From NCBI GenBank assembly GCA_963710375.1, contig CAVPZX010000005.1, positions 32,001 through 96,000 of the forward strand: a stretch of 64,000 bases of DNA, read 5' to 3'. The position numbers were made by a program, and so were the translations under genes. The notes under the pieces are model-generated. The model saw nothing but the letters and a program-made list of their open reading frames with translations. It ran no database searches and was not told the origin of the DNA. Every line of letters begins with the position of its first letter. Within the stretch, counting starts at the first letter, position 1. The stretch comes from Nitrospirota bacterium. Its GTDB lineage: Bacteria; Nitrospirota; Thermodesulfovibrionia; Thermodesulfovibrionales; Dissulfurispiraceae. Shown in pieces: positions 21,300 through 47,533 of the stretch.

Positions 21300-21381
21300 G
21301 CCGAAGTGGTGGAACTGGTAGACACGCACGTTTGAGGGGCGTGTGGGGCAACCTATGCGGGTTCGAGTCCCGCCTTCGGCA
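21300..21381 (+). tRNA. tRNA-Leu (anticodon GAG)
   Basis: Acceptor stem gccgaag/cttcggc, D-arm ggtggaactggtagacac, anticodon loop ttGAGgg, long variable arm, T-loop gttcgag; CCA not encoded. Confidence 0.95.
21357..21381 (+). repeat. left attachment-site core (tRNA 3' end)
   Basis: Identical to 42810-42834. Confidence 0.9.
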
Positions 21382-21435
21382 CTCCTTCTTCCCTTGAAAT
21401 TTAAGTCTTTTTTGCCTTGACAACCTCCTAAAACC

Positions 21436-21482
21436 TTGTCAGTAAAGTTTCAGTAGCACCCCTTTACTGACGAATTTACTGG
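21436..21482. repeat. candidate integrase arm-type sites (left)
   Basis: ttgtcagtaaagtttcagtag (21436-21456) plus inverted tttactgac/tttactgg; 20/21 match to 42736-42756. Confidence 0.7.
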
Positions 21483-21523
21483 TGTATATCAGGGCGGCTT
21501 AAATCGTAGTATACTTGCATCAT

Positions 21524-21967
21524 ATGAAACGAACTAATCAACAAACGTCTTCCGCCGCTGTACTGGCTACCGGGGCCGAGCTTTCCCGAAGGGCTTACGA
21601 TGTCACTTTCACGCTCGGCAACACTCCTAAAGTGGACATGATGTGTTCGGTTCCGGAGGGTCAAGCCTTCAAAATTCAGGTGAAGGGAATTTCTAATCCG
21701 AGAGATTTTTGGGTCAATAAATCTTTTTTCGATGGACCTACTCAACCAAACCTTTATTTGGTGGTTGTCCTTGTTTCAAAAGAAGCCCAGGACGACTTAT
21801 CATTTCATTTTTTTATACTTTCCCATGAAGAAGCACAGAAGGAATTCAACAAACTGCCTATAACTAAAAAGGATGGTAGTCCCATTACACAGTTCGGACT
21901 CGGTTGGACTTCGGTTAAACGATATAAGAACAAATGGGATACATTCCCTCATAGTTCCGCAGCGTAA
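21524..21967 (+). CDS. putative PD-(D/E)XK-fold nuclease
   Basis: 'AELSRRAYDV...PKVDMM...KIQVKG' matches the E..D..QxK layout. Confidence 0.55.
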   Translation: MKRTNQQTSSAAVLATGAELSRRAYDVTFTLGNTPKVDMMCSVPEGQAFKIQVKGISNPRDFWVNKSFFDGPTQPNLYLVVVLVSKEAQDDLSFHFFILSHEEAQKEFNKLPITKKDGSPITQFGLGWTSVKRYKNKWDTFPHSSAA

Positions 21968-22000
21968 GATTGAACAAACCGTCTACACGGGAGGGACGAA

Positions 22001-22264
22001 ATGACAAGACCGACACTCGAAAAGAAATATGAAAGTTTGACGAAACAAATTTGGAGAGATGACTTGGGACAGTCAGGCGAGTTGACTGTAAGCCGGGAAG
22101 AAACTATGTCCGGGGGAAAGTCATTTATGATAACAGCAGCGACCGGGACCAACTCCACTCAAATTCACAGGAGTTTCTTTGAGGATTATTTCAATGCAGT
22201 CGGCAGCGAACCTAAAAGGATAGTACGAGAAAAGATCAAAACAAGGCTGGAACAATTATTATGA
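22001..22264 (+). CDS. hypothetical protein
   Basis: GGAGG RBS, 87 aa, operon-like spacing. Confidence 0.55.
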   Translation: MTRPTLEKKYESLTKQIWRDDLGQSGELTVSREETMSGGKSFMITAATGTNSTQIHRSFFEDYFNAVGSEPKRIVREKIKTRLEQLL

Positions 22265-22283
22265 GCAGAGAAGATATAGGGAC

Positions 22284-23231
22284 ATGATCATAAAATGGAG
22301 ATGCATAATTGGTAGTTTGACAATCCTCTTCTTGACTTCATCTGTGTCTTTAGCTCAATTACAGCCATCATCACCACACACACTCGAAACCAGCCACGAA
22401 GAACAAAAAAAGCCTGAAGCAAAACAGGCTGACGGTAACAACAAACAGCGTGTCGCCGACAGTCTTCCTACCCCGACACATCCCCAATCGTCGGATGTCA
22501 AAGCTAGTGACCATGCAAAAACCATTGATGAAAAAGCCACGACAGAATGGTTGAAACTTGTTTTTGATTTCCTGCTTGTACTTTTCAATTGTTTATTGTG
22601 GAGATCAACTTACAAACTTTGGAAAGTCGCTCAAGAACAACGTGAAGATGTGAAGGCGTCGATTGCTGAAGCTGTTCGTTCCACCGCTGCCATGGAAAGC
22701 ATCGCTAAGTCCATGGCCGAGAATGGGACAAGAATGGAACAAGTCTTCGAGAGACAAAAAAATATCGCTGAAATACAATTGAGAGCTTACCTTACCGTCA
22801 ACCCAGGCACGTATTGGATACAAAACAGAGAATTGGGGCTGAAGTATGGGATCCAAATGTTAATAGCGAACACAGGTCATACTCCTGCAAGCGAAGTTTA
22901 TTTTGCTATGCGCACAGTAGTCAATGACTTTCCTTTGCCGGATAGCTTTGATCTTTCCTTGCCTTCCCCTCGAACTCAAACAGGAACCGGAGCACAGATA
23001 GCCACTGGTCAGCAACGTTTTATGAGTGCCTTCCTTGATGACATCGTCTCTGATGAGGAACTCAAGGAATTTACCCAAGCTACCAATCGAAAACTGTACA
23101 TATTCGGGACCGTTTGGTATAAAGATATCTTTGAAGAATCTCACTATACCAACTTTTGTCAGTGGGCCATGTGGGATACCGCCGGGAAATTTAGCACTAT
23201 AAATGTTGATCGTCATAATGATGCAACATAG
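22284..23231 (+). CDS. hypothetical membrane protein
   Basis: Signal-like N-terminus, TM helix, coiled region, 'QLRAYL' then globular domain. Confidence 0.65.
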   Translation: MIIKWRCIIGSLTILFLTSSVSLAQLQPSSPHTLETSHEEQKKPEAKQADGNNKQRVADSLPTPTHPQSSDVKASDHAKTIDEKATTEWLKLVFDFLLVLFNCLLWRSTYKLWKVAQEQREDVKASIAEAVRSTAAMESIAKSMAENGTRMEQVFERQKNIAEIQLRAYLTVNPGTYWIQNRELGLKYGIQMLIANTGHTPASEVYFAMRTVVNDFPLPDSFDLSLPSPRTQTGTGAQIATGQQRFMSAFLDDIVSDEELKEFTQATNRKLYIFGTVWYKDIFEESHYTNFCQWAMWDTAGKFSTINVDRHNDAT

Positions 23232-23454
23232 AAATGTAAAGCCATGTCGCCGTTACGATTGCCTGGTCTTGCGGTGCGGTCTATGACCCGGATCGTAGCT
23301 GTTGCGTAGAGGAGCGGGCATTGTCCGCGCCGTGGCTTCTGCGTTAGTGGGATACTCCGCCGTAGGTTGAGACACGGCCTTGTGTGGCTCATGAGAGTAG
23401 CCCCGGTCCCGTAACGGAGAGAAGGGAAACGCCGTGATCTGGTTGGTGTCGCCG

Positions 23455-24666
23455 TTAAATAGGCCGCTGTGTTCCTTCTTCCCTTCCGTTATATTCGATC
23501 CATATTTTCCATCGCCGTAGTCCCGTCTTGTCCCAACCGCCCATCATCTTCACGTGCCGCCCTAACTCGGCGAACAGGTGCCTTGCGACTCGTGCGTTGA
23601 ATGCATTGCCCAACTGTTTTAACCGTTCCGACTCCGCCATCTTTACGACCTCGCCGTCCTCGTAGCATCCCCACTTCGTCCACTGATGCGGTAGCGACTG
23701 CAACCGCTCCGCCTCCGTTGGCGTGAGTTGCCGGCGTCCGTCCGGAGTGTCGTACAGCCCCGTCTTTCCTCCTTTGCCGCCTCCACTCGTCGTGACCGTG
23801 ATACTTTTTCCATTCGGCGAATATATCCGCTGTCCCTGGCCGCCCCCGCCGTATTCTCCGATCTTCTTCCTGTCTCCCTCCCTGTCTTTCCACTCGACGG
23901 GTTCGGGCACGTCGAGGATGTCGCCGACGACGGCGCCCGGCCCGGTTCCGAGATACGCCGCAAGGCCGTCCCACCATTGGGTATCCGGTTGCCGGACCGG
24001 CCACGAACACCAGAAGTACCGCTCTCGCTGTTGGGCCGAGAACGCCGCCGCATTGATCAACACCGGCTCGACTCCGACGATCTCCGTCACTGCGTCACGC
24101 AACTTGCCGCCCATGCTCTCGACGTTCTCGAAGCAGAAATGGCGGGGCTTCTTCGTCTCGTACAGTTTCATCAAATTGTAGAACAGGCCCGACTTCTGCC
24201 CTTTCAGGCCCTTGCGTTTCCCGGCGCCGCTCATGTCCTGGCACGGAAATCCGCCGATCAAGAGGTCAAAGTCCGGCAGGCTTTTGTAGTCTATCTTTGT
24301 TATGTCGCCTTCGGCTTTGTGCCGTGGGAAGTGGTATCGATACACCGCCTGGGCATGCTCGTCTATCTCGCTGTATCCGACGCAACGCCACGGTAGCCCG
24401 TCCGGCCACTGCGTCGAATACCATAGGCCGAGCTCCGCCGCCCCGATCCCGCTGAACGCCGAGAAGTACGGATGGCCCGAGAGGTCTGGCTTGAAGAACT
24501 GCTTCGGGCCTTTCGGCGGCCTCCCGCCGTTAGCGCCGTTGACTGCCGACGTCCCTTGTTGCGCCGGGGTGTTCGACCTGCCATCACCCAAGCCGTGCCC
24601 TCGCTTGCCGATCTTGGAAAGGTATGCCGCGATTTCCGGTGGCACCGGGATTTTCTTCTTCGCCAT
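23455..24666 (-). CDS. DNA (cytosine-5)-methyltransferase with basic N-terminal extension
   Basis: Motif I 'FSGIG', IV 'GGFPCQ', VI 'ENV', VIII 'QQRERYF', IX 'LTPTEAERLQ', X 'QLGNA'. Confidence 0.9.
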   Translation of the reverse strand: MAKKKIPVPPEIAAYLSKIGKRGHGLGDGRSNTPAQQGTSAVNGANGGRPPKGPKQFFKPDLSGHPYFSAFSGIGAAELGLWYSTQWPDGLPWRCVGYSEIDEHAQAVYRYHFPRHKAEGDITKIDYKSLPDFDLLIGGFPCQDMSGAGKRKGLKGQKSGLFYNLMKLYETKKPRHFCFENVESMGGKLRDAVTEIVGVEPVLINAAAFSAQQRERYFWCSWPVRQPDTQWWDGLAAYLGTGPGAVVGDILDVPEPVEWKDREGDRKKIGEYGGGGQGQRIYSPNGKSITVTTSGGGKGGKTGLYDTPDGRRQLTPTEAERLQSLPHQWTKWGCYEDGEVVKMAESERLKQLGNAFNARVARHLFAELGRHVKMMGGWDKTGLRRWKIWIEYNGREEGTQRPI

Positions 24667-24830
24667 GATGGGGCTCAGTATAACACAAGGTGCAACCGGA
24701 ATTCGACCGGCTCAGGTATTCCGGTTGTACTCCAGACAGTTTTCCGGTTTTCCGGCAACCGGAAAGTATTATAGACAATTGTAAACAATTATGCTACTAT
24801 TGTTATATAATTGTAATGGAGGTGGAAATT

Positions 24831-25163
24831 ATGCCGAAAATACTGAGACTTGGCGGCCCGACGAAGCCGATAGCCGTGCGTGTGCCGATCACCCTTCTTG
24901 ACCGCTTGGACAAGTTGAAGGCCCGGGCCAGCCGCCTGGGCCTCGTCGTTGATGTACCGGCGGCCGTCATAGAATGCCTCGACCGGTTGGCGGCGGAAGC
25001 CGAGGCCGAACTTGATGCACGGGAAGGCAAAACGCCTGCCCCGGCCAAACCCGCGCCGGTTCCGGCGAAGCCTGCGGCGATCGATAGGAAAACAACGGAG
25101 AACTCAGTGCCGGTCAAAAACTCCGGCAGTGTTGCTGACAACGCCCTCGAAGGTTGGCAGTAA
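24831..25163 (+). CDS. putative ribbon-helix-helix DNA-binding protein
   Basis: 'TKPIAVRVPITLLDRLDKL' strand-helix pattern; GGAGGTG RBS; divergent from the MTase. Confidence 0.55.
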   Translation: MPKILRLGGPTKPIAVRVPITLLDRLDKLKARASRLGLVVDVPAAVIECLDRLAAEAEAELDAREGKTPAPAKPAPVPAKPAAIDRKTTENSVPVKNSGSVADNALEGWQ

Positions 25164-25166
25164 TAG

Positions 25167-25189
25167 CGGCGGGTCCCAAAGACCCGCCG
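25167..25189. terminator. hairpin between convergent genes
   Basis: cggcgggtc-ccaaa-gacccgccg. Confidence 0.55.
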
Positions 25190-25196
25190 GCGTGCT

Positions 25197-25400
25197 TCAT
25201 TGTTCGGCTTCGTAGTGCATGGCCGCGGCCCTCAATACTCGCTCGCCGTCGATGTCCTCGGCTTTGCAGAGGTGCAAGATGTCGGCGACTAGGTCAGTGA
25301 CAGCGTCCTCGCATATCTCCCCGTCCCGGTAGTCGGGATGGCTTTGCATGTACGCCCGCACTGCTCCTATTGCCCTTGCACGTCTCGTTTCGATGTCCAT
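25197..25400 (-). CDS. small hypothetical protein
   Basis: RBS aggagg; 'VTDLVADILHLC...AAMHYEAE'. Confidence 0.6.
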   Translation of the reverse strand: MDIETRRARAIGAVRAYMQSHPDYRDGEICEDAVTDLVADILHLCKAEDIDGERVLRAAAMHYEAEQ

Positions 25401-25457
25401 GTGGTGTGTCCTCCTTCGGGGACCGGCCTGGTAGCCGATCCCCTGGTGTTGTGGTTG

Positions 25458-25964
25458 TTAAGCTGTTTGCTTCGTCCGGGTGTATTCCCACACTGCGTCG
25501 TCATAGCCCGGCAGTGAGCTAATGGCGGCCTCCTTGATTGCCTGTGTCAGTTTATAGGCGTCAGTAGTGTAATAGTCGTCGGTCTCGCATGACTGATATT
25601 CCAGGCACTTGCACATTTTCAAAATGTCGATCATGTTTCTAACTTTCCGGTCTATGATGTCCCGCATCCTGACAACGATATAAGAGGGTTTTTCGATGAG
25701 CCCCGGCAGTTCGTCTATGTCGCCCTTGCAGTCGGGGTATCTTTCCCCTACGCTCCTGAGATTTTCAGAGTAGAGGACGCCCGCGTAAATAGTGGCTATC
25801 TCGTCGTCTGTCATGGAGTCGTTGAACTGCGCGGCCAGTGTTTCAGAAATATGGTATTTCAGATACCTGGGATCAACCCGCATGCTGCCGTGCTTCTTTG
25901 ATACTGCGAAAGCCGCAAGTTCCCTGATGTGTTCCGGTGAAACTACAAATGCACTCATGGTCAT
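25458..25964 (-). CDS. hypothetical phage/plasmid-type protein
   Basis: 'MSAFVVSPEHI', 'ENLRSVGERY', 'CLEYQSCE'; GGAGG RBS. Confidence 0.65.
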   Translation of the reverse strand: MTMSAFVVSPEHIRELAAFAVSKKHGSMRVDPRYLKYHISETLAAQFNDSMTDDEIATIYAGVLYSENLRSVGERYPDCKGDIDELPGLIEKPSYIVVRMRDIIDRKVRNMIDILKMCKCLEYQSCETDDYYTTDAYKLTQAIKEAAISSLPGYDDAVWEYTRTKQTA

Positions 25965-25972
25965 ATCCTCCG

Positions 25973-26116
25973 TTAATTGGTTAGTGTTTTTATTGCGTCT
26001 CTGAGGGCGGTTATCTCGTCCTCGTTGCCTGCGTATGGGCCGGATAGTTGTTGTAGCCTCTTGATGGCTTGGCCCATGGCTGTTATTGCTATGATTTTTT
26101 TGTCTCGTAAGCTCAT
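25973..26116 (-). CDS. small hypothetical protein (47 aa)
   Basis: AAGGAG RBS before the ATG at 26116; first gene of the minus-strand cluster. Confidence 0.5.
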   Translation of the reverse strand: MSLRDKKIIAITAMGQAIKRLQQLSGPYAGNEDEITALRDAIKTLTN

Positions 26117-26534
26117 GTTGTTTTTCTCCTTCTGTGACAGGGCTTTCTTTTGGGTGCCCGTCATGTCTCTTGTGTCTGTTGTTGGTTCTATAAACTTCCC
26201 CGGACCGGCGGGGCCTTCACTTCTGACAGGCCCCGTTGTCCTGGGGAATTGCCTCTGTCTTCTGCGGCAGGGAAATACAGGCATGAGCAATGCGAGGGCA
26301 GGGATATGATCAATCAATCGACGAACGGCGCGAGGCAACGGACATGACAGGGCTTTATCTGGCGTGGCTGTTGAACGAAGCTACAAGAGAGTTTCCATAG
26401 GCAGGATTTTCCGGGCGTGTCGTTAATCCTGAACGAGGGGTTAAGGGGCCTGTGGCCCTTTAAGGCTTCCTTGGGAAGGATGGAAAGGGAAAAATGGTTT
26501 GACTTTTTTCAAAAAGAGAAGATAGTATATTTTA

Positions 26535-26626
26535 TACTTGTGGGCGAAGCCTGCCCAAAAATAAGTGGGAACCGAACAACGGACCCAGGATGTCTCATAA
26601 AGAGATCTCCTGGGTTTTTATTTTTT
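26535..26626 (+). ncRNA. candidate small RNA or terminated leader
   Basis: TTGACT (26499) / TAGTAT (26523) promoter-like pair, then stem acccagga...tcctgggt followed by a U-rich tract. Confidence 0.4.
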
Positions 26627-26899: not shown

Positions 26900-27365
26900 T
26901 TTTTTTGAATACGGGTCTTTGCAGGGCATTTAAAAGCGATGGGACTACTGTGATCCCATCGCGTCTTCTCTGTGGCGAGAGGCATGACAGGTTCCTGAAA
27001 GGGTTCTGGCGGGCATGTCGTGAAGGAGTAACCATAGGTGGTATTTTCCGGGCGTGCCGTTGACTTCGGCTTTAAAGTGGCGGAGTCCAGAGGCCCACGG
27101 CCTTTGCGAGTCTGTGGTCTTCGGGTGTGCGACTGTCGAGGTGCGAGGCCGAGACTGTCGAGGATGCCCTTGCGTGGATCTGTCTGCTGGGCTTCAACAG
27201 CAGTCTGATCCACGTCACCGTGGCCGTTGATGCGATATGGGGACACCCGCCGAATAGCCGAAACTCCGAAAGAGGTTCGGCAGTGGTGGCTCCGGCCCGA
27301 CCAGCGGATGCGATCGCACAATTGCGTGCTCGACTAAAGCTGGATTGTTTGAGTAAAATTAGGCC

Positions 27366-28517: not shown

Positions 28518-28527
28518 TCAAGGAAAC

Positions 28528-28779
28528 ATGAACCGCGAAGAAGAATTCAACGAGCAATTGGCCCGCGAGGTGGCCCAGAACAAGGACGCCATCGCCGACA
28601 TTCTCCGTAAAAGCGAAGTCGGTCAATGTGGCGGCAGGTGCAAGGGCTACCAGGAAAAATCAATCGAGGACCTGTGCGAACAATGTTTCAACGCCCTTGA
28701 GGATAACGCTGACGAAATCTTTTCTGCGTCGCCCATGTTGAAGCTGTTCGGCGACGCTATGAACAGCAGTCGGGATTAG
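28528..28779 (+). CDS. small hypothetical Cys-containing protein
   Basis: 'CGGRC...CEQC'; follows the previous ORF closely. Confidence 0.5.
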   Translation: MNREEEFNEQLAREVAQNKDAIADILRKSEVGQCGGRCKGYQEKSIEDLCEQCFNALEDNADEIFSASPMLKLFGDAMNSSRD

Positions 28780-31604: not shown

Positions 31605-31747
31605 TCCGGTATTATAATCATTTCAATAATCGAAGTATATATTTGCCCCGCCGTGTCTCTGCCCCTTTTCTGCGGACAAAAAAACGGGACGACTGTTATA
31701 TCGTCCCTTGTCAGTTTAAAGCCTGTATGACCTTCTCCTTGCGTCTG

Positions 31748-32263
31748 TCAGCGTCTAAAACCCCCTGAGACATCCATAACGCCGCCGTTTGCCCCTGAGT
31801 CGTCTGCAAGGACGAAGCCGCCGGCGTCCTTACGCTTCGCCCGATTGGCGTCTTGCTCCTTCTTTTCGGCTTCGAGCGTGACTTTTGCGGCCCTCGCCAT
31901 CATGATATACTGTCGGAGATCCAAGGGCCTGCCCAGCGGCCCGTAACTCGGCGGTCTGTCAGTCTCCTGCAGATACGCAATGACCTGTATGTTGAGATCG
32001 AGCCGCACAAGTATGAATTCCGGCAGTATGTCGAGCGGCACGAGCGCGGATTCCTTGTACGATGTTACCGACCCATCAGGGTGTTTGCAGGCCCACACGT
32101 CTATAATACAGGCCCCGGAGCAACGGCCCCGCCAATTCTCACGCGCACGGAGACGATTGTCAAGGGCGGCGTTGACGATCTGCCGGTGTTCCCGCTGTGA
32201 TGTCGTGTCGTGCAAACCGCCTTTAAGTCTGTGGTCCTCGGCGTCCTCTTTCTGTTTGAGCAT
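31748..32263 (-). CDS. hypothetical protein downstream of relaxase
   Basis: GGAGG RBS, same operon direction. Confidence 0.6.
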   Translation of the reverse strand: MLKQKEDAEDHRLKGGLHDTTSQREHRQIVNAALDNRLRARENWRGRCSGACIIDVWACKHPDGSVTSYKESALVPLDILPEFILVRLDLNIQVIAYLQETDRPPSYGPLGRPLDLRQYIMMARAAKVTLEAEKKEQDANRAKRKDAGGFVLADDSGANGGVMDVSGGFRR

Positions 32264-32281
32264 GTCCGTATTCCTCCCTTT

Positions 32282-34090: not shown

Positions 34091-34434
34091 CAAAACGCCG
34101 CCCCAACGGTGGCCTGCAATATTTTTCTGATCTGTTCGAGGTACGCCTTCGCCTCGTCAGTGATAATCTGGATGTCCGGCCCCGCCCCGGACTTGTTGCC
34201 GATCCAAACCGCCTTGCACAATTGATTGAGCAACACGGCGTTGCTTTGAAGTTCCATTTTCAACAAGTGCAAAGCCTCCGTGTCCACCGGTCTGCCGAAT
34301 ACACTTTGCCTGAGCCATTCAGACGCGGACAACCCCGTTTGCTCCGCCTGCACCAACAACTGCGTGTGGCCTTCCGGCGTCATCTTGCATGTCACAGTAT
34401 GCGAGTATTTTTTAGGTCTCGGTTTCCGTGGCAT
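34090..34434 (-). CDS. mobC: MobC relaxosome accessory protein
   Basis: RHH N-terminus 'VTCKMTPE...GLSASEWLR', 'ELQSNAVLLNQL' (variant of GxNLNQ). Confidence 0.75.
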   Translation of the reverse strand: MPRKPRPKKYSHTVTCKMTPEGHTQLLVQAEQTGLSASEWLRQSVFGRPVDTEALHLLKMELQSNAVLLNQLCKAVWIGNKSGAGPDIQIITDEAKAYLEQIRKILQATVGAAF

Positions 34435-34817
34435 TAGTTAGCCCTCCTCTCCTCGTATGCCGACAACATCTCCGACATGCGATTGATACTGCCGCAAAAC
34501 CCGTCGATTGTTTTGTCCATGGTATCCAACGCTCGATCGAGCGGCGATGTAGCATGCTCGGTGTCAGTCTCCCTCCGTTCAAGCTCGTCAAGGAGTTCCC
34601 CTGTCGACAATGCAGACAAGCATTGTTCGACGCTCTGTTCGACAGCCGCTTTAACACTTCCGTCGTGTTCGACATCTTGTTGAACGGCCTGTTCGACAAG
34701 CACGGACCTGCGGATAAATTCAGAGACCGAAAGGCCCTCGGCTTTTGCTTTGTTCGACAAGCCTTCAAATTCGTCGTCCGAAAAGCGTACTCCACGCGGT
34801 TTCGATGTGTTCGACAT
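34434..34817 (-). CDS. RHH DNA-binding protein, first gene of the mob operon
   Basis: 'RGVRFSDDEF...AKAEGLSVSEFIR'; GGAGGTG RBS; TAATG overlap with mobC. Confidence 0.7.
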   Translation of the reverse strand: MSNTSKPRGVRFSDDEFEGLSNKAKAEGLSVSEFIRRSVLVEQAVQQDVEHDGSVKAAVEQSVEQCLSALSTGELLDELERRETDTEHATSPLDRALDTMDKTIDGFCGSINRMSEMLSAYEERRAN

Positions 34818-34849
34818 GTTCGACACCTCCATTTTTTGCGTGTTCGACA
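34624..34849. repeat. 8 copies of TGTTCGAC(A)
   Basis: Copies start at 34624, 34636, 34666, 34690, 34751, 34808, 34817, 34841. Confidence 0.8.
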
Positions 34850-34934
34850 CACTGTTTAACAGTTCCGCACGGTACTGCGGCTGCCTTTTTTGCCCCACTT
34901 GTGGGGAAGAGACCCAACGGGTCGAAGGGGAGTC

Positions 34935-34990
34935 AGGGAGGGTTACTTCGATAGAAGTAACTCCTCCCTTTATCTCCGCCTTGCTTTTGA
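34935..34990. other. candidate origin of transfer (oriT)
   Basis: Inverted repeat agggagggttacttc-gata-gaagtaactcctccct next to cgccttgc, just upstream of the RHH-mobC-relaxase operon. Confidence 0.5.
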
Positions 34991-35005
34991 AGACGGCCCT
35001 CCCTA

Positions 35006-36238
35006 TCAAAGATAGCGGGGCTCCGTGACGCCGACGCCCTGGACATTGCTGGTCTCCTGTTTCCATCCGGAAACCAATCTATCAACATTTGCAGTAAGAG
35101 CCGTTTTGTCTACCGCGACCCTGTTCCTGCCTTCTGCTTTCGCGCGATAGAGCATTTTGTCTGCGTCGCCCAACATTTCAAGTCCTCGGCGTCCCGACTC
35201 CGACAAAGGCAACTGCAACAGCGAACTGCTGACGCCGATAGACGCCGTGAGTGAAAAGGGTTTACCGTCAGCTTCGAACCACATATTTTGTATGTCAGTC
35301 CGTATTTTATTTGCACCACTGATAAACACATCCGGCGTTTCGCGGGAGGTATTTTTTACCTCTACTAAGATCGCCACCTCCTCCCCGCCTACCCTAGCTG
35401 TGATCGTCTGAAGCCCCGGAAATGCTTCCCCTGTAGTGGTCTGGATTTGCTTTGCAACGCCCGCAAGAACGGCGTCACCCGTATTGTGTCCATATCTGTC
35501 GTTGACATGCTTGAAGTAATCGAGGTCCAGAATGGCGGTATAAAAACAGAAATCGTGAGCCTCATTGACCAGCTTTTGAAGCCCGGCACGATTGGCCAAG
35601 CCCGTCAATGCGTCGGTGAAAGCAATGTCCTCCAAGCCCTTAATTTTTGAATCTATCTCCGAGACAAACCTGGCAACCTCCGGGGCCTGCCGGAGATAGA
35701 TCGGCAGTTCCAAGGTCGCCTTTTGATAAGACGCTTGCAACTGCTCCACCTGCGTTGTTAGCCTGCGAACCATGTCATCCCTTATCCGCAACTCACGCAA
35801 CACCTCGGTCACGGAGTCGCTGACTGTCGTGATTGCGTTGGTCTGCGTGTCCAAGATCGGCTTGACCGCCTGCATAACCGCTGATGTCATCTTTTCTTTC
35901 AAGTCCACCTGCGCCATGGCCTTGGCCCATTCCTCGGACCGTGCGTTAGCGAGGTCCTGCCAAGCGTCCGCCTCGTTTGCTAACAAGTTCTCGAATTCGG
36001 CAGTGAGCCAGTCCCGCCACGCCGACAATGCCCTTACCGACTTCGGTTCGCGGCGCGCATAATTTGCGACATCTCGGTCGAACCACTCAATGACCTCGCC
36101 CGCTGACAGCCGACCTTCTTGGTCCGCGCCGAAATGCATGTTTTCTGCCTCAGAGTCGGCAAACCAATCAATAAGCCCCTCGGGGGCGCCGTGTTCCCGT
36201 AGCCAGTCCAGCGTGATCATCGTTTCGTTTTTTTCCAT
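35006..36238 (-). CDS. GGDEF diguanylate cyclase (GGEEV variant) with coiled-coil N-terminus
   Basis: 'TDALTGLANR', 'DLDYFKHVNDRYGHNTGD', 'ARVGGEEV', 'TASIGV', 'ADKMLYRAKAEGRNRV'; GGAGG RBS at ATG 36238. Confidence 0.85.
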   Translation of the reverse strand: MEKNETMITLDWLREHGAPEGLIDWFADSEAENMHFGADQEGRLSAGEVIEWFDRDVANYARREPKSVRALSAWRDWLTAEFENLLANEADAWQDLANARSEEWAKAMAQVDLKEKMTSAVMQAVKPILDTQTNAITTVSDSVTEVLRELRIRDDMVRRLTTQVEQLQASYQKATLELPIYLRQAPEVARFVSEIDSKIKGLEDIAFTDALTGLANRAGLQKLVNEAHDFCFYTAILDLDYFKHVNDRYGHNTGDAVLAGVAKQIQTTTGEAFPGLQTITARVGGEEVAILVEVKNTSRETPDVFISGANKIRTDIQNMWFEADGKPFSLTASIGVSSSLLQLPLSESGRRGLEMLGDADKMLYRAKAEGRNRVAVDKTALTANVDRLVSGWKQETSNVQGVGVTEPRYL

Positions 36239-36272
36239 CCGTTTTTCCTCCGTGTTTTTATTTTTTACGACT

Positions 36273-36470
36273 TTAAAAGAACAGTTCCGCCCCGGCCTCA
36301 ACCTCGACAGGTTCCGGGGCCTCCGGTTTTTTTGTTTGCATTTCCACCGGCATCTGCACGGGGAAAATCCACCGCTTGCACCCCCGGCACCACTCCACTG
36401 TCTCCTTCACCTTTTTGCCGCACAGCGGGCATAGAAAAAGGATCGGCTTCCCCTGTTTCATTTCCGACAT
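36273..36470 (-). CDS. small Zn-ribbon protein
   Basis: 'CPLCGK...WCRGCK'; start overlaps the upstream stop (TGATG). Confidence 0.6.
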   Translation of the reverse strand: MSEMKQGKPILFLCPLCGKKVKETVEWCRGCKRWIFPVQMPVEMQTKKPEAPEPVEVEAGAELFF

Positions 36471-36589
36471 CAGTTCCACCGGGCGGCGAGCCACGCCGCG
36501 ACTGCCTCGGCCTCGGCGACGTACCCGGCTTTTATCAAGTGGCTGATGACGGGGTTAAGGGGCTTCTGCTTGGGTTTCTGCTGTTTCAT
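36470..36589 (-). CDS. 39-aa hypothetical protein
   Basis: MKQQKPKQKPLNPVISHLIKAGYVAEAEAVAAWLAARWN; coupled at both ends. Confidence 0.5.
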   Translation of the reverse strand: MKQQKPKQKPLNPVISHLIKAGYVAEAEAVAAWLAARWN

Positions 36590-36795
36590 CAGTTGCCTCC
36601 CTTGTCAGGTTCTTTGTCCGGCATCGCCCTAATCACTGCGGCCCAATTGGTTTTTGTCTTCTTCGGCTTCTCCTGGGCGGGTGCCGGTGGTGCAGGCTGA
36701 TAGAACGGGCACTTGTTGTGCTCGTTTGGTTCCCTCTCGCATGTGCCCCGCTCCTCGCATGTCATGCATATGCTCTCATATCCTTTGGTGTTCAT
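36589..36795 (-). CDS. small Cys-rich hypothetical protein
   Basis: 'CMTCEERGTC...CPFY'; ATGA overlap with the upstream gene. Confidence 0.55.
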   Translation of the reverse strand: MNTKGYESICMTCEERGTCEREPNEHNKCPFYQPAPPAPAQEKPKKTKTNWAAVIRAMPDKEPDKGGN

Positions 36796-37211
36796 CGGCC
36801 CGCCTCCTGTGAGACCGGTGCGGAGTCCTCGGCGTCCTTTACCCATGGCTCGCACGTCTGCCACTTGTGCATCGCCTCGTACTGCATCCCGAAATTGCCC
36901 TGCCATGCGAGCCACGGGCTCACACGATACCAGCAATCATTGCCGTCCCTGCGTTGCTTCACTAAGCCCTTGGACGCCAAGGTCTTGGCGGCGTTTATGA
37001 CGGACTTCCTGCTGACGTGGAGTTGCTTGGCGACCTTACTGTGCGATATGCAGACCTCGGCTCCCTGGTAGCCGACCGTCAGGACCAGGGCCATGAGCAC
37101 CTTGAAGTTGACGTGGGACAGTTCCGCCATTGCGGCGTGCAGTCCGTTCCTGGCGACCATCACGTTGCCACCCGTCGCCTTGTTGTAGTCAGACATAAAC
37201 TTCTCGCTCAT
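36792..37211 (-). CDS. RepL-like winged-HTH protein, copy 2
   Basis: 'FKVLMAL...ISHSKVAKQLHVSRKSVINAAKTLASKGLV...YRVSPWLAWQG'. Confidence 0.65.
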   Translation of the reverse strand: MSEKFMSDYNKATGGNVMVARNGLHAAMAELSHVNFKVLMALVLTVGYQGAEVCISHSKVAKQLHVSRKSVINAAKTLASKGLVKQRRDGNDCWYRVSPWLAWQGNFGMQYEAMHKWQTCEPWVKDAEDSAPVSQEAGR

Positions 37212-37756
37212 GACTGCACCTCCTGTGCCTGCCAATTGCGGCCCCTGAGCACCTTTAACAAAGGTTTTAGCTTTCCCTTCCACGCGCATTGCGGATTCAG
37301 CCGGATATACATGGTGCCGCCCTTCTCGACCTTGCACAGATAGCCGCCGCCAACCATCTCGCCATCTACCTCTATACCGTCTATCAAGGTGTGGATATGA
37401 GTGTAGATGGTCTGCTGCGAACTGATGTTAAGTGCGGCAGCTATCTCGGTATTGCTTATGTGGATGTAGTTTTCAAAATCGAGGCGGGCCATGAGGTAGC
37501 AGAGAACCCGGCATGCGCCGGAAGGCAACTCCGTGGCTGCCTTAAGAAGCGTCGATTGAAATGCTATGATGTGGTCGCCGACAAATCCGTTAAGCTCCTT
37601 CTGCTCCTTACGGATGGCTGCGAAACGGGACTTAGATACAAGCAGCTGCACCGATTGCTCTGCGAGTATCTCGCCGGTTTCATCGTTGGTGATCGAAACG
37701 GTGTGATTTCTGGAGGGTTGCCTTGTTGCTGTTACTGTATTGGCCTTTGTGTTCAC
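37208..37756 (-). CDS. RepL-like replication/maintenance protein, copy 1
   Basis: 'DETGEI', 'RVLCYLMARLDFENYIHISNTEIAAALNIS', 'RLNPQCAWKG'; GTG start after AGGAG. Confidence 0.75.
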   Translation of the reverse strand: MNTKANTVTATRQPSRNHTVSITNDETGEILAEQSVQLLVSKSRFAAIRKEQKELNGFVGDHIIAFQSTLLKAATELPSGACRVLCYLMARLDFENYIHISNTEIAAALNISSQQTIYTHIHTLIDGIEVDGEMVGGGYLCKVEKGGTMYIRLNPQCAWKGKLKPLLKVLRGRNWQAQEVQS

Positions 37757-37973
37757 CTGTGCACTCCTATCCGTCTGGATTTTCGTGCACGGTGACTTGC
37801 TTGGTCGGCCACGACCATGGCGTCGGTGGGGCGGGATAGAGCCTTGCACTGCCCAGTTCCCGAAACTCTCCACGCTCAGTCTGGTGGAGATGCTCCCCGT
37901 TGCCGCTACTGCTTTTTGATCTGTTTAGTGTATCACAAAACTTCCTCGAACCCCTGAAAACCGCCCTTGTGAG

Positions 37974-38339
37974 CTAAACGATGCTGTTAAATGTTTGTTT
38001 TTTCGGCTTTCTATTCGGCCTCGGCTGTGATGCATTTTCACGGCAAGCCTTCGTCTTCCTTTCCGACTTCGCTTTGCCGCCGATCTTTCCGCCCTTGCTT
38101 GCCCAGCCGCGAACGAACACTGATGCCTCGGCGTCGCTGAACATGCCGTGATATTGCATAATGAGCACGGTGGCTTCGGGATCGTCGTCGTGGTCGTCGA
38201 ATACGAAAGCCGCAGGCGGCTCCGGCAGGCCCAAGTATTTTGCCCGAGAAAAATAGAAGCCGCCGACTTCAAGAGCGACAACCCATGGCACCGGCTCGTC
38301 TGCTCTGTACGATTTTCCTCTGTGCTTGTATGTTTTCAT
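37974..38339 (-). CDS. hypothetical protein with basic KGG-type C-terminus
   Basis: 'ASKGGKIGGKAKSERKTKACRENA'; GGAGG RBS. Confidence 0.6.
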   Translation of the reverse strand: MKTYKHRGKSYRADEPVPWVVALEVGGFYFSRAKYLGLPEPPAAFVFDDHDDDPEATVLIMQYHGMFSDAEASVFVRGWASKGGKIGGKAKSERKTKACRENASQPRPNRKPKKQTFNSIV

Positions 38340-38450
38340 CTGTCAAAGCTCCTCCGGTTCCTGTTCTATTTTAATTATAGCAGAACACGCTTCGATAATT
38401 CAAGTCCTTTCCCAAACTTTTTTCGCGGGTATTTGCCCTACATTTTCGTT

Positions 38451-39140
38451 TTCCAAAATATTGGAAGATTTTTCCAAAAATTTGGAAAGTCCTTGTTGAT
38501 GCTGTAGGCTTCCGGGGTCATCTCTTAATGTATAATGTTTCAGTGCTGATTAAGGAGCCTTTTACAGCACTGGCCGACCATCGCCTTTGTCTTTATTACG
38601 CCGTCCCCGACTTCGCCGTGAGCGAATAGTTCGCGCCGAGTTCCGAAAACTCCCTGCGATGCTCGGCGACGATAAAGCCGTCGCCTGTGCTTCTCGCTCG
38701 CTTTCGGTCCTCGTCAGGACTTATAAATTTTTAAAAAGACCGCCTTGAACGAAGAGGGCCCCGGTTCCTTCCGGCGATTCTCGCCCGCCGTGCCTTCGCC
38801 TCTCAGAAAATCTTTAATATTCTGTCAGGGCGGTTCGGGACCCGACGACGAGGAGCGAGGCTCGGGAGCGATGAGGAGGAGCGGCCCGAATCCCCTGACG
38901 CGGGTCGCTCGTTCGGAGAACGAGTGACCTTCTTTCAGATAGCATCACTCCGTCCCTCTGCTATCTGGAGATCTTCCAGATACATTTACGGCGGCCTCTC
39001 CTGCGGGATCCCACCGATCCCGTGCCGGCCGTTGTCCAATGTCTTCACCTTTCCTTCCAAAGCCGGTCTTCAATCATTTTACTGTTTGACTATGTTGCGG
39101 CGGCTGCGGTGTGGGCCTGGGCCGCCGCCATCTCATAGCT
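38451..39140. other. candidate replication origin / single-strand origin region
   Basis: Two 16-bp imperfect palindromes (38451, 38472) followed by about 600 bp of hairpin-rich DNA with no credible ORF. Confidence 0.45.
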
Positions 39141-39147
39141 CGCCTCA

Positions 39148-40134
39148 CTAAGTTCCTTTGTACTGAGACAGCAGGCCGTGTATGTAGAGGTTCAAACTCA
39201 TGCCGATTTTCCTGGCACGTCGTTCGAGGTCGGCCTTTTCTGTTTTAGTCACGGTCATCGTGTACGGGTGCATCACCATGCCCTCCGGTTCTTCTTCGGG
39301 GGATAGCAGCTTGCGCACATACGCCTCTTTCTCTACTCCCGCGGCCTGTGCGGCGTCGACGATGGCCCGGTCCTCGTCGGCGTCATGGCCGTGCAGCCAG
39401 AATGTGAGTTTGACCTGCTCAGCGGACTCCCCGACTGTCCTCTTCTGCTCGATGACCGCCTTCGCTGCCTCTCGGACTTCGGTCTTGTTTACGCCACTGG
39501 CTATCTCGTCCTGTTGGGCGGGAGGCAGTTCTGCGACCTTGGCCGCCGTGTTAGCAGACAACGTCTTTTCTTTGACCGCTTTCTGTAACGCCGGCGTGCC
39601 CTTGGCGATGACCGTCTTTAGTTGTCTGTATTTGTCCTCTCCGACTCCGGCTGTGGCGGCCAGTGACTTTGTGGTATCAACCGGCCTGATGTTTGAAACC
39701 TTGCCGGATTTCCGGGAAGGCTTCGACGTCTTCCCCGCCGCCGCTAGGTTCGCCTTGGCCTGTTGTTCAAGCATGGGCCGTAGCTTTTCGGCAAGCGCGA
39801 TTTTGTCCAAGTCGGACAGGTTGCGCCGGCCGAACTGGTTCTTGATGATCCAGATTTTGACCTCGGTGTCGCTGGCGAACTGAATCTCATGCGTGCGGAA
39901 CTGTATGCCGTGTTTGTGACATATCTCGTACCGGTTGTGTCCGTCCAAGATGACTCCGGTCCCCCCCCACTCGACGAGGGCGTCCCGGCATCCCTCAGCT
40001 ACGATGCTCTGTTCGAGCCGTTCATACTCGTCGGCGGTCAGCTTGGGGATCAATGTCCTGAAGTCATCCCTGATCGTCATTTCCCTGAGTTCCCTGTGTC
40101 CTGCGTCCTGTGTTTTCTCCACTGCCGTTGCCAT
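39148..40134 (-). CDS. ParB-like N-terminal domain protein
   Basis: 'LTADEYERLEQSIVAEGCRDAL...ILDGHNRYEIC...NQFGRRNL', HTH-like middle, RHH-like C-terminus. Confidence 0.75.
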   Translation of the reverse strand: MATAVEKTQDAGHRELREMTIRDDFRTLIPKLTADEYERLEQSIVAEGCRDALVEWGGTGVILDGHNRYEICHKHGIQFRTHEIQFASDTEVKIWIIKNQFGRRNLSDLDKIALAEKLRPMLEQQAKANLAAAGKTSKPSRKSGKVSNIRPVDTTKSLAATAGVGEDKYRQLKTVIAKGTPALQKAVKEKTLSANTAAKVAELPPAQQDEIASGVNKTEVREAAKAVIEQKRTVGESAEQVKLTFWLHGHDADEDRAIVDAAQAAGVEKEAYVRKLLSPEEEPEGMVMHPYTMTVTKTEKADLERRARKIGMSLNLYIHGLLSQYKGT

Positions 40135-40135
40135 G

Positions 40136-40438
40136 TCAGTTCCCCCCTTTTGGCTTTAGCTTGACGAGACAAATGTCCGCCGGAAACATATCTGTGCTTG
40201 CAACAAAGTCGGCAAGGCACTCCGCACAAACCACATAGACAGCTTCGCCAGCCAATTCTCCGTTGATGTACATTGTAGCGACTTCTCCCAGTCCGCCGTC
40301 GCAACGCTGACAAACGCCCCTGTAAGTCGGGGCACCCTCAGGAAACCTTGCACCACTGTCAATGGCAGGCAACCTGCCTTGCTTATCCTCGCACAAATCC
40401 ATTATGCCGAGACCGTACTTTCTTGTGTTCTTCCTCAT
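40136..40438 (-). CDS. hypothetical Cys-containing protein
   Basis: 'CQRC...CAEC'; tightly packed in the operon. Confidence 0.55.
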   Translation of the reverse strand: MRKNTRKYGLGIMDLCEDKQGRLPAIDSGARFPEGAPTYRGVCQRCDGGLGEVATMYINGELAGEAVYVVCAECLADFVASTDMFPADICLVKLKPKGGN

Positions 40439-40440
40439 AT

Positions 40441-40770
40441 CTATTTCCCCCCCTTATTGTTTTTTTTACTCGTCCTGCTTGCTGTGATCGTGCCGTTGAA
40501 TCCATTGCAGTACGCTCGCAGCATCTCGTCAGTGACTCCCCCGACGAACTTGAAATGCCAGTCGAGGTCTTTACGACTTTGCCGCGCGATGTCCGTGACG
40601 TCCATGTTTTTGGCGATCTTGTGAGTCGCCAACGTTTTTTGTGCGTAACGAACTCCCATGCCGTGCGCGACCTCTGCATAGGACTGTCCCGTGACGGGGT
40701 CGATGGTGGATTTTACTGTTGAAGGGTTTACTGCTGTTTTGTTGCTGCCGGTGTTGTAGTTGGGTTTCAT
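40441..40770 (-). CDS. hypothetical protein, first gene of the minus-strand operon
   Basis: AAGGAG RBS before the ATG at 40770. Confidence 0.6.
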   Translation of the reverse strand: MKPNYNTGSNKTAVNPSTVKSTIDPVTGQSYAEVAHGMGVRYAQKTLATHKIAKNMDVTDIARQSRKDLDWHFKFVGGVTDEMLRAYCNGFNGTITASRTSKKNNKGGK

Positions 40771-41306
40771 GGCAAAATCTCCTTTGAAAACGACAGCAAA
40801 CACAGTTGTGTCACTGTCATTCCCGGCGGAGATTTTGCCCTAGGCCCCCTTGAAGATCATCCCTGATCTCTTCGGCCCTCGATTATCATGGTGCCCGCCG
40901 TCAAGTCTCTCGCCGAAGGCGAGGATTAGCACCTATGATTCTACTCACCCGCTTCGCCGGACTTACGCTATGCTCGTGCTGCCGTTATTTCGGGCTTACT
41001 GCTCACTGCGAAACTTAGCTTAGCACATCGATGTCAAGGCATGCGTGAAAACGCCCCCACGGCCCGGCCCTGGCCGTTCTTTGATGTCCTCGCCGAGCCC
41101 CGAGGCGGCGCGGCCTAAGTACCGCCGATCAAGACATACCAGGATAAGGGCACCCCGCTTTTGATGCCCTTCCTGACCTTCTCCTCGCGTCCGCTTTCTT
41201 CTGATCTGGCCGTTTTCACGGGTTCCGGCCCCGATCTATGGTATTATGTTCTGCGACTGCGCTACTATACTGTCGCCGACATCGAACGAAAGGGGGGCTT
41301 GAGACG

Positions 41307-42788
41307 ATGGGAAAGCTTACGCCAAAGGGTAGAGGCTATGAGAAAGACGAGACGATACTAATCGGCGAACAAGATCGCAACAAGCAACCTCGCACCGGCC
41401 TTCCTGGGCGGATATACATCGACGGACAGTATGTCGAGCGGTGTCCCTACGTCGGCGGCCACACGTGGGTCGTCAACGACGAAAACGCGAAGTGGATATG
41501 CAAGGAGTGCGGCTATGTCCCGCCCGCATATCTGATCGATGTCGTGGATCACAAGACAGTCGTTGACATCATGGACAAAAAGACCGGCAAGCCGGTCCTT
41601 AACAAGGACGGCTCGCCTAAAAGGCGTTTTGCTCGTGTCCGCATTTTCAACGACGCCCTCGGCGTCCGTCTCACTTCATATAGACAGGCCCTTTACACTT
41701 TGGAGCAAGTCCGACATGAGATAGCCGCCGAGACATTCACCCCGGCAATATACTCCAAACGAGCCGCCAAAGAGTTGTACTTCGAGACGCTTTGCGACGA
41801 GCTTTTCACGCTGAAAAAAGCTCTTAAACGGCTGGCGCCTTCATATGTCAAAGACTATCGGCGCTACTGCTCGTCGCATAAGACATATTTCAGGGGCCGT
41901 CGAGTCGGCGACATCACGACAGCCGACATATCGAGCTACGAGGCATATCTAAGGACGCCGCCCGCCGAATGGTCCGACATATATATCAAGCGGTATATGG
42001 ACCACCTGAAAAGCGTCTTTCTCTGGCTGTACAGAGACAAGAAGGCGATAAAAGAAATGCCACGCTTCGAGAAGATCAAAGCCATGGCAGGAGCGGGCAC
42101 CGGCACTTACATGCCCGCTCCTGCACAAGCCGCCGTCCTCGCCATGATCGACAACGAAGCGGACCGGCAGTTTGTCCGGTTCCTGATGCTCCATGGCCGT
42201 AGGCCCAGCGAAGCAAGGGCCATGAAGAAGAAAAGCATCGTGCCGCTTGCCAAGACGATAACTATCAGCGAGCATTTTTCCGGCAACACCATTGTCCCCG
42301 GCGTCAAAAGCCGCGTTGAACAGCAGGTCATACCGATGCACCCGGAGATGGCCGGATGGCTCATTGCCCGTTGGGACGGGCTTGACGATCCAGAGGCGTT
42401 TATATTCGTCAATCCTCACGCTAACGGCGGACGTGGCGGCCATATCGACGAAAACAGCCGTCGTCCGTACACTGCGGATGCGGCATACAAGCTGTGGCGA
42501 CGAGTTCGCAAAGCCTGCAAGCTCCCTCAAAGTATGCGGATGTACGATGCCACCAGACACAGTGCGGGTACGCAGATGTCGCAAGCGGGGTTGAGTGCGA
42601 AGTCGATCTCAATGCTCCTCGGCAACACGCCCGCAACGGCCTCGAAGCACTATATACATGACGATCTCGAACACGCGCGCGAATGCCTCTCGGTGCTGAC
42701 AACGGAAGCCCCGAAGAAGGCCCCGAAACTCACAGTTGTCAGTAAAGTGTCAGTAGGGGGTAAGGGTCGTCCGCAAAGCAAGGAATGA
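41307..42788 (+). CDS. int: tyrosine recombinase/integrase
   Basis: 'HGRRPSEA' (R), 'VKS' (K), 'YDATRHS' (R), 'LLGN...KHY' (Y); ends 21 bp before the right att core. Confidence 0.9.
   Translation: MGKLTPKGRGYEKDETILIGEQDRNKQPRTGLPGRIYIDGQYVERCPYVGGHTWVVNDENAKWICKECGYVPPAYLIDVVDHKTVVDIMDKKTGKPVLNKDGSPKRRFARVRIFNDALGVRLTSYRQALYTLEQVRHEIAAETFTPAIYSKRAAKELYFETLCDELFTLKKALKRLAPSYVKDYRRYCSSHKTYFRGRRVGDITTADISSYEAYLRTPPAEWSDIYIKRYMDHLKSVFLWLYRDKKAIKEMPRFEKIKAMAGAGTGTYMPAPAQAAVLAMIDNEADRQFVRFLMLHGRRPSEARAMKKKSIVPLAKTITISEHFSGNTIVPGVKSRVEQQVIPMHPEMAGWLIARWDGLDDPEAFIFVNPHANGGRGGHIDENSRRPYTADAAYKLWRRVRKACKLPQSMRMYDATRHSAGTQMSQAGLSAKSISMLLGNTPATASKHYIHDDLEHARECLSVLTTEAPKKAPKLTVVSKVSVGGKGRPQSKE
42736..42756. 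repeat. candidate integrase arm-type site (right)
   Basis: ttgtcagtaaagtgtcagtag, 20/21 identical to 21436-21456. Confidence 0.7.
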
Positions 42789-42809
42789 CGCGGGTTCGCA
42801 AAAGGCAAC

Positions 42810-42834
42810 GCGGGTTCGAGTCCCGCCTTCGGCA
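42810..42834 (+). repeat. right attachment-site core (duplicated tRNA-Leu 3' end)
   Basis: Identical to 21357-21381. Confidence 0.9.
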
Positions 42835-47519: not shown

Positions 47520-47533
47520 GAGGGGTCAAACGC

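Follow-up and report, generated by a model that had tools for sequence, protein, structure and literature searches.

The stretch analysed here (the window, 64,000 nucleotides; positions 32,001 to 96,000 of contig CAVPZX010000005.1, assembly GCA_963710375.1) belongs to a Nitrospirota bacterium of the Dissulfurispiraceae and contains, at 21357–42834, an element that we read as a canonical integrative mobilizable element (IME), one that would excise as a circle, be nicked at a predicted origin of transfer (oriT) and leave the cell through the conjugation channel of a helper. We give this reading a probability of roughly 0.7. The new part is a divergent relaxase lineage together with its predicted oriT; the modules have precedents and the lifestyle is known. 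The genome that bears the element, G000, is a 98.8% complete assembly of 9 contigs and 3.19 Mb, with the window within contig C5. A first-pass annotation, made from the letters alone, had already proposed an integrative element that borrows a helper's machinery, and this proposal is strengthened by arm-like sites at both ends, the empty site of a relative, the predicted oriT and the helper-type ATPase genes that most genomes of the genus have.

Borders, target site and integrase

The features of integration, including open reading frames (ORFs) with lengths in amino acids (aa), are the following.

21300–21382, + strand: tRNA-Leu(GAG), the integration target, left intact (ARAGORN, Rfam)
21357–21381, + strand: attL core, 25 bp, the 3' end of tRNA-Leu(GAG) (exact repeat)
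21437–21456, + strand: arm-like motif inside attL, with tandem TCAGTA words (putative role)
40136–40803, − strand: two ORFs of 100 and 120 aa, divergent from the integrase, no family (Pfam, PHROGs, NCBIfam)
41238–42788, + strand: tyrosine integrase with an N-terminal four-Cys motif (PF00589, E=4.9e-10; phrog_1, E=7e-33)
42737–42756, + strand: arm-like motif inside attR (putative role)
42810–42834, + strand: attR core, 25 bp (exact repeat)

Site-specific insertion is shown by the 25-bp cores, the paired arm-like sites and the empty site of a relative. The att repeats and the integrase named in the first pass both stood: the direct repeats are identical at 25 of 25 positions, and their spacing of 21,453 bp is the expected circle size. 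The 20-bp arm-like motif has two copies in the 3.19-Mb genome, one just inside each core and differing from each other at one base; the pair are likely integrase arm sites. With up to four mismatches allowed, the single further genomic copy of the 25-mer lies in tRNA-Leu(CAG) (G000:C5 456619–456643), which could be a second target site because the same core is present there. The GC content is 52.9% over the element and 55.6% over 31605–42834, against 47.4% for the genome.

The element is absent from the tRNA-Leu(GAG) region in the eight fetched of nine other genomes of the genus, where the sole translated match is a distantly related integrase in genome G005. The empty tRNA-Leu site that had been suggested as a check was found in G004, of the same genus: the tRNA ends at L020:1275 and the homolog of window positions 42873–43215 starts at 1284 (89.7%), a gap of 9 bases. 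Additional att copies lie downstream of the tRNA in G004 and G005, which makes tRNA-Leu(GAG) an insertion hot spot and the right flank accessory DNA.

Of 67 other genomes of the family, 10 have a relative of the integrase at 29–35% identity, and G000 has one more beside its transfer-messenger RNA (tmRNA) gene. This second G000 island, of 7.1 kb (G000:C2 about 520264–527393; L056:5264–12393), holds the integrase (34% identity) and a methyltransferase. A 3.8-kb tRNA-Gly island (G198:C63; L057 516–1316) combines the same integrase family with a rolling-circle Rep (ORF2/G2P). The family also lies within about 2 kb of VirD4-like genes in G007:C2, G008:C1 and G009:C203; these loci are likely relatives of the integrative and conjugative element (ICE) type, or bear a coupling protein, and are candidate helpers.

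Mobilization module, predicted oriT and probable helper dependence

The mobilization (mob) operon and the predicted oriT occupy the middle of the element.

32282–34093, − strand: relaxase, 603 aa, with an HUH domain at about residues 21–171 (Y43, H121, H131, H133) and a C-terminal half without assignment (motifs, fold)
34090–34434, − strand: MobC/NikA-type relaxosome accessory protein (PF21983, E=1.1e-9; NF041264 MobA, E=2e-4)
34434–34832, − strand: second ribbon-helix-helix (RHH) protein, 132 aa (PF21983, E=2.6e-9)
34936–34982, + strand: predicted oriT, a hairpin (34936–34968) followed by a nic-like motif (34971–34982) (lineage motif; hairpin z=−3.8)

The RHH–MobC–relaxase order of the first pass was borne out, with both small proteins over the PF21983 cut-off. 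The product of 32282–34093 has no Pfam, NCBIfam or PHROG match, and the PF03432 profile matches nothing genome-wide in G000. On the evidence of invariant motifs, language-model neighbours and modelled fold, it is nevertheless an HUH relaxase with MOBP-like motifs. A full HMMER search of 1.84 billion representative proteins found 14, namely the query and 13 relatives at 27–38% identity; a single relative exceeds the PF03432 cut-off, and another three give scores under it. All 11 aligned sequences keep Y43, R46, H121, H131 and H133, and the single motif I Tyr and the His-triad motif III of MOBP relaxases are both present. In the Atlas of language-model neighbours, residues 1–300 fall among PF03432 clusters (score 0.96). 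The structure model (predicted local distance difference test, pLDDT, 86) has Foldseek matches to TraI, TrwC and MobA, and in a structural search of 48,161 chains the top six were all conjugative relaxases, MobA of R1162 first (Z 11.4, root-mean-square deviation 3.5, 140 residues aligned), followed by a geminivirus Rep (Z 8.2) and unrelated folds (Z ≤6.8). These best matches are MOBQ, MOBV and MOBF relaxases and do not settle the class. Most of the relaxase tree lacks resolution and the branch of the window protein is long; for that reason we assign neither a subfamily nor a donor.

The lineage alignment matches 1 of 400 other genomes of the phylum and 4 of 250 genomes of the order: G147, G482 and G543 strongly, and G239 weakly (E=0.001). 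In the first three the relaxase gene comes after a NikA/MobC gene. The G147 copy lies in an att-bounded tRNA-Asp island of 10,953 bp with an integrase of the element's family and a RepB-primase and AAA_25 pair. The G482 copy lies in an att-bounded tRNA-Arg island of 20,340 bp, whose integrase is a different one and which also has an HTH_17 gene, a weak match to Rep ORF2/G2P and restriction-type cargo; the G543 copy is at a contig end. No type IV secretion system (T4SS) family was found among the proteins scanned (10 from the G147 island, 14 from the G482 island). Judged by gene content, the mob module is conserved across the lineage and the remainder is mosaic, since the relatives have other replication modules and neither the G147 nor the G482 island has a RepL-like or GGDEF match. 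Word-based searches, which are insensitive at 30% identity, found no relaxase relatives in viral contigs, PLSDB plasmids or JGI metagenome contigs; the same type of search in genome_contigs gave one relaxase-lineage locus, and the 5.8-billion search with the relaxase alignment returned only two input proteins. The lineage is largely missed by the Pfam profile, and such islands would thus be called non-mobile.

G147 has a second IME-like island (G147:C58 59311–70880; L026–L027). Its relaxase matches PF03432, and the C-terminal half of this protein and the genes after it recur in the first island. Upstream (5') of nikA in the second island lie many TGTATACA words, which echo the repeated words of the window element, and an RHH-like gene; a 14-bp stretch is in common with the window RHH gene. 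In both G147 islands the relaxase is followed by a membrane-type ORF of 407 aa (G147:C58 12566–13789; L024) with no Pfam match, which we presume to resemble TrbL/VirB6.

An 8-bp word occurs eight times in 34624–34848, across the start and coding sequence of the second RHH gene, against 0.03 per kb genome-wide; these words are likely RHH operators. Further upstream, the motif AAGGC-N1-2-(A/G)GATA lies 85–151 bases before the start of nikA/RHH in four of four lineage members, each time preceded by an inverted repeat on the opposite strand, and in none of one more distant relaxase island. G000 has 55 copies, a chance of about 0.26% per 300 bases of one strand, odds that overstate the case because the motif was defined after the four sequences had been viewed; a stricter form occurs 6–28 times per genome in 13 genomes. 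In RP4 the MOBP nick sequence likewise follows an inverted repeat (PMC3772185, which describes the MOBP motif). The G482 motif reads TATCCTGCC, the exact RP4-type MOBP nick sequence, and the window motif reads TATCTCCGCC at 34971–34980. By analogy with the RP4 consensus, the nick is predicted on the + strand between 34978 and 34979. The motif common to the lineage upstream of these genes makes the predicted oriT testable. Two other candidates were rejected: a CCC-N-CAAG-N-GGG hairpin common to the window and the G147 island, which is absent from the G482 and G543 loci, and a lone TATCCTG near 41140, which is within chance.

If the nick is right, the + strand would enter 5' first toward higher coordinates, with the mob operon last, which is typical (PMC11541004). 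For all nine ORFs between the predicted nick and the integrase the + strand is the template, the orientation reported for leading genes; this is no independent support, because the mob operon is oriented likewise.

Among the 27 ORFs of the element, scans against Pfam, PHROGs and NCBIfam gave no coupling protein, T4SS or virion match, as the first pass had stated, and the pair of VirB4 and coupling protein by which an ICE is recognised is therefore missing from the element. An integrase and a relaxase with no transfer machinery make a borrowed conjugation system likely. The G000 genome has 0 matches to VirD4, TrwB, VirB4-like (two profiles) or VirB10. VirD4-like genes were found in eight of the nine other genomes of the genus and VirB4-like genes in nine of nine, side by side in six, so helpers likely circulate in the genus.

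The following course of events may be proposed. The integrase would recombine attL with attR into a 21,453-bp circle, restoring the tRNA; the MobC/NikA and second RHH proteins would bind around the hairpin at 34936–34968; and the relaxase (Tyr43; His121/131/133) would nick the + strand near 34978/34979. A VirD4/VirB4 system of a co-resident or incoming ICE or plasmid would then export the relaxase–DNA complex. Given that the assembly has no helper, the element would stay parked until one arrives. Early arrivals in the recipient would be the genes for the GGDEF protein, the two RepL-like proteins, the ParB-like protein and the integrase; the mob operon would come last. With help from RepL1 and the ParB-like protein the circle might perhaps persist briefly before reintegration, and the methyltransferases could conceivably protect the circle or the host.

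Excision was considered in public sequencing runs. Ten runs from three studies contain all or part of the stretch, five of them with at least 95% of its words, and two may be where this DNA comes from; runs X7–X10 contain small shares. Four (X1, X2, X4, X7) were compared over 33000–52900, which covers the attR side, all as contigs, where rare forms drop out; X7 consisted of scattered 200–330-bp pieces only and was not used. In X1 one 22,779-bp contig spans attR unbroken and, if colinear, would end at about 21005, past attL. The integrated form thus runs across attR in contigs, and neither a circular nor an empty-site joint at attR is among the joints and loose ends listed for the four runs. 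Contig depth of the element relative to its flanks was 1.14 (X1), 1.25 (X2) and 1.05 (X4), which is no copy number. Relative to the window, three public runs show a substitution at 41475, in the integrase gene, and lack one base at 38859, in the large intergenic region; these are assembly errors or strain variants. The missing base at 38859 opens no long ORF.

Several observations weigh against the IME reading, among them the lack of a listed joint at attR, the helper-free assembly and the after-the-fact definition of the oriT motif. The window motif departs from the MOBP nick consensus (C/T)ATCCTG(C/T) (ATCCTG core), to which only G482 conforms exactly within the lineage. The flank of the empty site is itself accessory DNA, and the tRNA holds other insertions in relatives. 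The integrase keeps R322, R440 and Y472, but has Asn463 at the His/Trp catalytic position, where two full-length relatives have His. No excisionase was recognised among the element ORFs with Pfam, PHROGs and NCBIfam, and the G482 island and the second G147 island have an HTH_17 gene beside the integrase.

The points on the joint, the helper, Asn463 and the excisionase would also fit an element that was formerly mobile and is now fixed, with its integrase weakened, its excisionase lost or no compatible helper at hand, or an ICE remnant that has lost its T4SS. ICE-like relatives do exist, as the proximity of the integrase family to VirD4 genes in G007, G008 and G009 indicates. We nevertheless regard such stranding as unlikely. 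All backbone ORFs are open and adjacent, the att cores are 100% identical with arm-like sites one base apart, and no T4SS fragments are left, while two islands of the same lineage also have no T4SS match among the proteins scanned. Bacterial type IB topoisomerases can work with Asn at the catalytic position, and contigs drop rare forms such as a circle.

Packaging by a helper phage, with the element a phage satellite or cryptic prophage, was also weighed, given the tRNA integration, the phage-type integrase and weak PHROG matches to replication protein O and a ParB-like family. It is very improbable: no capsid, terminase, tail, primase or AlpA match was found among the element ORFs, which include a full RHH–MobC–relaxase operon beside an oriT-like site, and word-based searches of viral contigs yielded no relaxase relative. 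By megablast the whole element matched neither plasmids nor any of 50,697 phage records. A helper-dependent IME remains the preferred reading.

Putative replication and cyclase genes, and cargo

The genes between the predicted nick and the integrase include those for a putative cyclase and for putative replication and maintenance proteins.

35006–36238, − strand: GGDEF protein, 410 aa, with an orphan helical N-terminal half, a GGEEV signature and no RxxD I-site (GGDEF, E=1.9e-27)
36273–36795, − strand: two small Cys-rich ORFs, 73 and 68 aa (weak zinc-ribbon match for the first, none for the second)
36792–37211, − strand: winged helix-turn-helix (HTH) protein, RepL-like 2, weakly like phage replication protein O (PHROG-type matches)
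37208–37756, − strand: RepL-like protein 1 (RepL1), Asn-Pro pair kept (Atlas, structure, plasmid matches)
37974–38339, − strand: 121-aa ORF, no family (Pfam, PHROGs, NCBIfam)
38340–39147: intergenic region of 808 bp with two near-palindromic 18-mers (38449–38487), a candidate replication origin
39148–40134, − strand: ParB-N-like protein with a C-terminal RHH (weak phrog_620 match, E=0.0012; plasmid relatives)

RepL1 resembles RepL (PF05732) clusters in the Atlas (0.95) and in structure (template-modelling score 0.53–0.60), with a winged-HTH fold. It matches 218 plasmids, the best of them very small, such as the 1,861-bp Drgb4, in which RepL is the sole named gene, and a 3.9-kb plasmid with RepL and MobQ; it has no match in 400 other genomes of the phylum. 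RepL is the initiator of the pSN2 family, whose plasmids are among the smallest (PMC5703833), a related small-replicon family has been described (bioRxiv 2022.12.05.519187), and the Asn-Pro pair is a RepL motif (PMC10655114). With hmmscan neither RepL-like protein matches PF05732, generic HTH profiles being the only matches. The tandem RepL-like genes of the first pass are half supported: RepL1 has good support, and the second, a winged-HTH protein, has no plasmid match and no significant likeness to the first (18% identity, E=0.7). The ParB-like call has the weak PHROG match and 115 matching plasmid records with ParB-N annotated in its favour, and no ParA was found among the element ORFs scanned.

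These genes raise the alternative of an integrative plasmid, in which a small RepL replicon acquired an integrase but sustains a free multicopy state, with mobilization secondary. The plasmid matches of RepL1, the 808-bp region with paired palindromes upstream and a depth of 1.05–1.25 times the flanks in three of three well-covered runs would agree with it. However, the depth excess is small and, being contig depth, gives no copy number; the runs list no joint at attR; the smallest plasmids include the RepL ones, and neither protein matches PF05732 nor is a ParA present. In ROD21, moreover, deletion of the RepL-annotated SEN1990 left replication and copy number unchanged (PMC10655114). We consider the integrative plasmid quite improbable, and the earlier suggestion that the element may replicate as a plasmid has the likeness of RepL1 to proteins of very small plasmids in its favour and the ROD21 result and the modest depth against it.

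A distance of 24 bp separates the end of the GGDEF gene from the predicted nick motif, and this gene is predicted to be the first one transferred. Its call, like those of the two methyltransferases listed below, was upheld. The metal-binding, signature and I-site motifs of diguanylate cyclases have established roles; here DLDYFK at 238 and GGEE at 284 are intact, with Phe replaced by Val. The GGDEF domain is 28–33% identical to host GGDEF domains. The N-terminal half (about 200 residues) found only itself among 673 candidates, had no phage match and gave only weak coiled-coil-type Pfam matches; its single-sequence model (pLDDT 42) was not used.

If the oriT is right, a putative diguanylate cyclase would thus be the first gene delivered; leading regions are noted for anti-defence genes. 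The relaxase lineage could then be one of Nitrospirota-type hosts, unseen by Pfam screens and with its own nick-site family, and in this member a sensor-less, feedback-free cyclase would enter first, so that a burst of cyclic di-GMP (c-di-GMP) aids establishment, through a motility stop, a rise in adhesion or a disturbance of nucleotide signalling; the gene would then have a signalling role in the leading region and not be passive cargo. We hold this extension to be rather unlikely. With the predicted oriT, the element would allow one to ask cleanly whether c-di-GMP serves mobile elements when they enter a new host. A literature search on diguanylate cyclases in conjugation leading regions found no paper. 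The supplement of a leading-region survey (PMC11541004) has, in its searchable files, one 7-member family with three cyclase annotations.

The remaining genes, to the left of the mob operon, are mostly cargo.

21515–21967, + strand: cargo ORF of about 147 aa (phrog_29029, E=2e-4), by eye resembling a PD-(D/E)XK nuclease
22001–23231, + strand: cargo ORFs of 87 aa and 315 aa with hydrophobic segments, no family (profile scans)
23455–24666, − strand: C5 cytosine DNA methyltransferase, no cognate endonuclease recognised (PF00145, E=1.3e-38; PADLOC MTase_II)
24831–25163, + strand: 110-aa ORF, no family (profile scan)
25197–26338, − strand: three small ORFs, including one of 168 aa (25458–25964) and one of 67 aa with a phrog_3963 match (PHROGs, plasmid search)
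27366–29904, both strands: cargo ORFs of 383 aa (+), 83 aa (+) and 359 aa (−), no family over cut-off (profile scans)
30000–31604, − strand: N6/N4 DNA methyltransferase fused to an Mrr-type nuclease-fold domain (PF01555, E=2e-40; PF04471, E=1.5e-11)
31748–32263, − strand: 171-aa ORF downstream of the relaxase, no family (Pfam, PHROGs, NCBIfam)

The 168-aa ORF has relatives of about 31% identity on 86 plasmids, 45 of them conjugative. The 83-aa ORF (28528–28779) has two homologous pieces on G000:C2 near 858100–858700 (58–60% identity). Two diverged copies of about 90 bp, at 26334–26424 and 26974–27061, with 83% identity over a 36-bp core, lie on either side of a 600-bp cassette that has a 58-aa ORF; the DNA around them folds better than shuffles (z −2.7 to −4.4), and they are possibly duplicated promoters or recombination sites. 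Two intergenic stretches are strongly structured, 24660–24840 (z about −4) and 27130–27360 (z about −3.6); they lie 5' of the C5 methyltransferase and of plasmid-type small genes and might act as single-strand promoters. In the Rfam scan the tRNA was the only match, and a hammerhead-like appearance at about 38700 was rejected. A sigma-70 promoter scan (7 sites, 5.7 expected) was not informative. Outside the element, multi-copy intergenic inverted repeats of the host chromosome lie at window positions 10612–10819, 19658–19862, 47314–47519 and 50911–51086.

Comparison with known systems

Relaxase-only islands occur commonly, and relaxases are known to escape profiles (bioRxiv 2026.01.13.699239). 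Among the papers listed by a literature search on integrative or conjugative relaxase elements in Nitrospirota, no title or opening of an abstract describes such an element. By definition a canonical IME encodes a relaxase itself but neither a coupling protein nor a pore, replication and ParB genes are among the listed extras, and NBU1 of Bacteroides is a MobP IME at tRNA-Leu (PMC5704250). The present element is alike in its tyrosine integrase at the 3' end of tRNA-Leu, its own relaxase and accessory factors and its lack of a coupling protein or pore. It differs from NBU1 in phylum, in a divergent relaxase, which shares about 24–33% identity with the closest relatives and falls under the PF03432 threshold, in two RHH proteins and in having RepL-like and GGDEF genes inside the backbone; the likeness drawn here is one of modules.

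PIMEs/IncP islands (bioRxiv 10.64898/2026.01.12.698999) are also about 22 kb, integrate, depend on a helper and carry replication genes and defence cargo. They are, however, defined by alpA, a replicase and trbJ/trbL and confined to Pseudomonadota, and none of those genes was detected in the element. The RepL-like proteins of the pSN2 family and very small RepL plasmids (PMC5703833; Drgb4, pDESACI.02) are about 30–33% identical to RepL1, and pDESACI.02 pairs such a protein with a relaxase. Those plasmids are free, of 1–5 kb and described without an integrase, whereas here a 21-kb integrated element has a second winged-HTH gene adjacent. Island-borne cyclases have been published as cargo, namely DgcK/DgcL of SXT/R391 ICEs and Dgc137 of VPII (PMC10672970). 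The likeness is a GGDEF gene on a mobile island; here the gene is a backbone one by the predicted nick, with an orphan N-terminal half, GGEEV and no I-site.

The ROD21/EARL excisable islands, known from Salmonella, share with the element an integrase, a relaxase, a RepL-annotated winged-HTH protein and a methyltransferase (PMC10655114). In ROD21 the relaxase is of the MobQ type and is accompanied by a TraD-like protein, type IV pilin genes and a known recombination directionality factor; the element shows none of these, and the RepL-like protein of ROD21 is without the Asn-Pro pair that RepL1 keeps. The unusual combination of modules seen by the first-pass annotation was overstated, the ROD21 set, NBU1 at tRNA-Leu, the island cyclases and the mosaic relatives all being precedents; a mosaic make-up is usual among IMEs. 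As an IME the element is ordinary, and its lineage is little studied.

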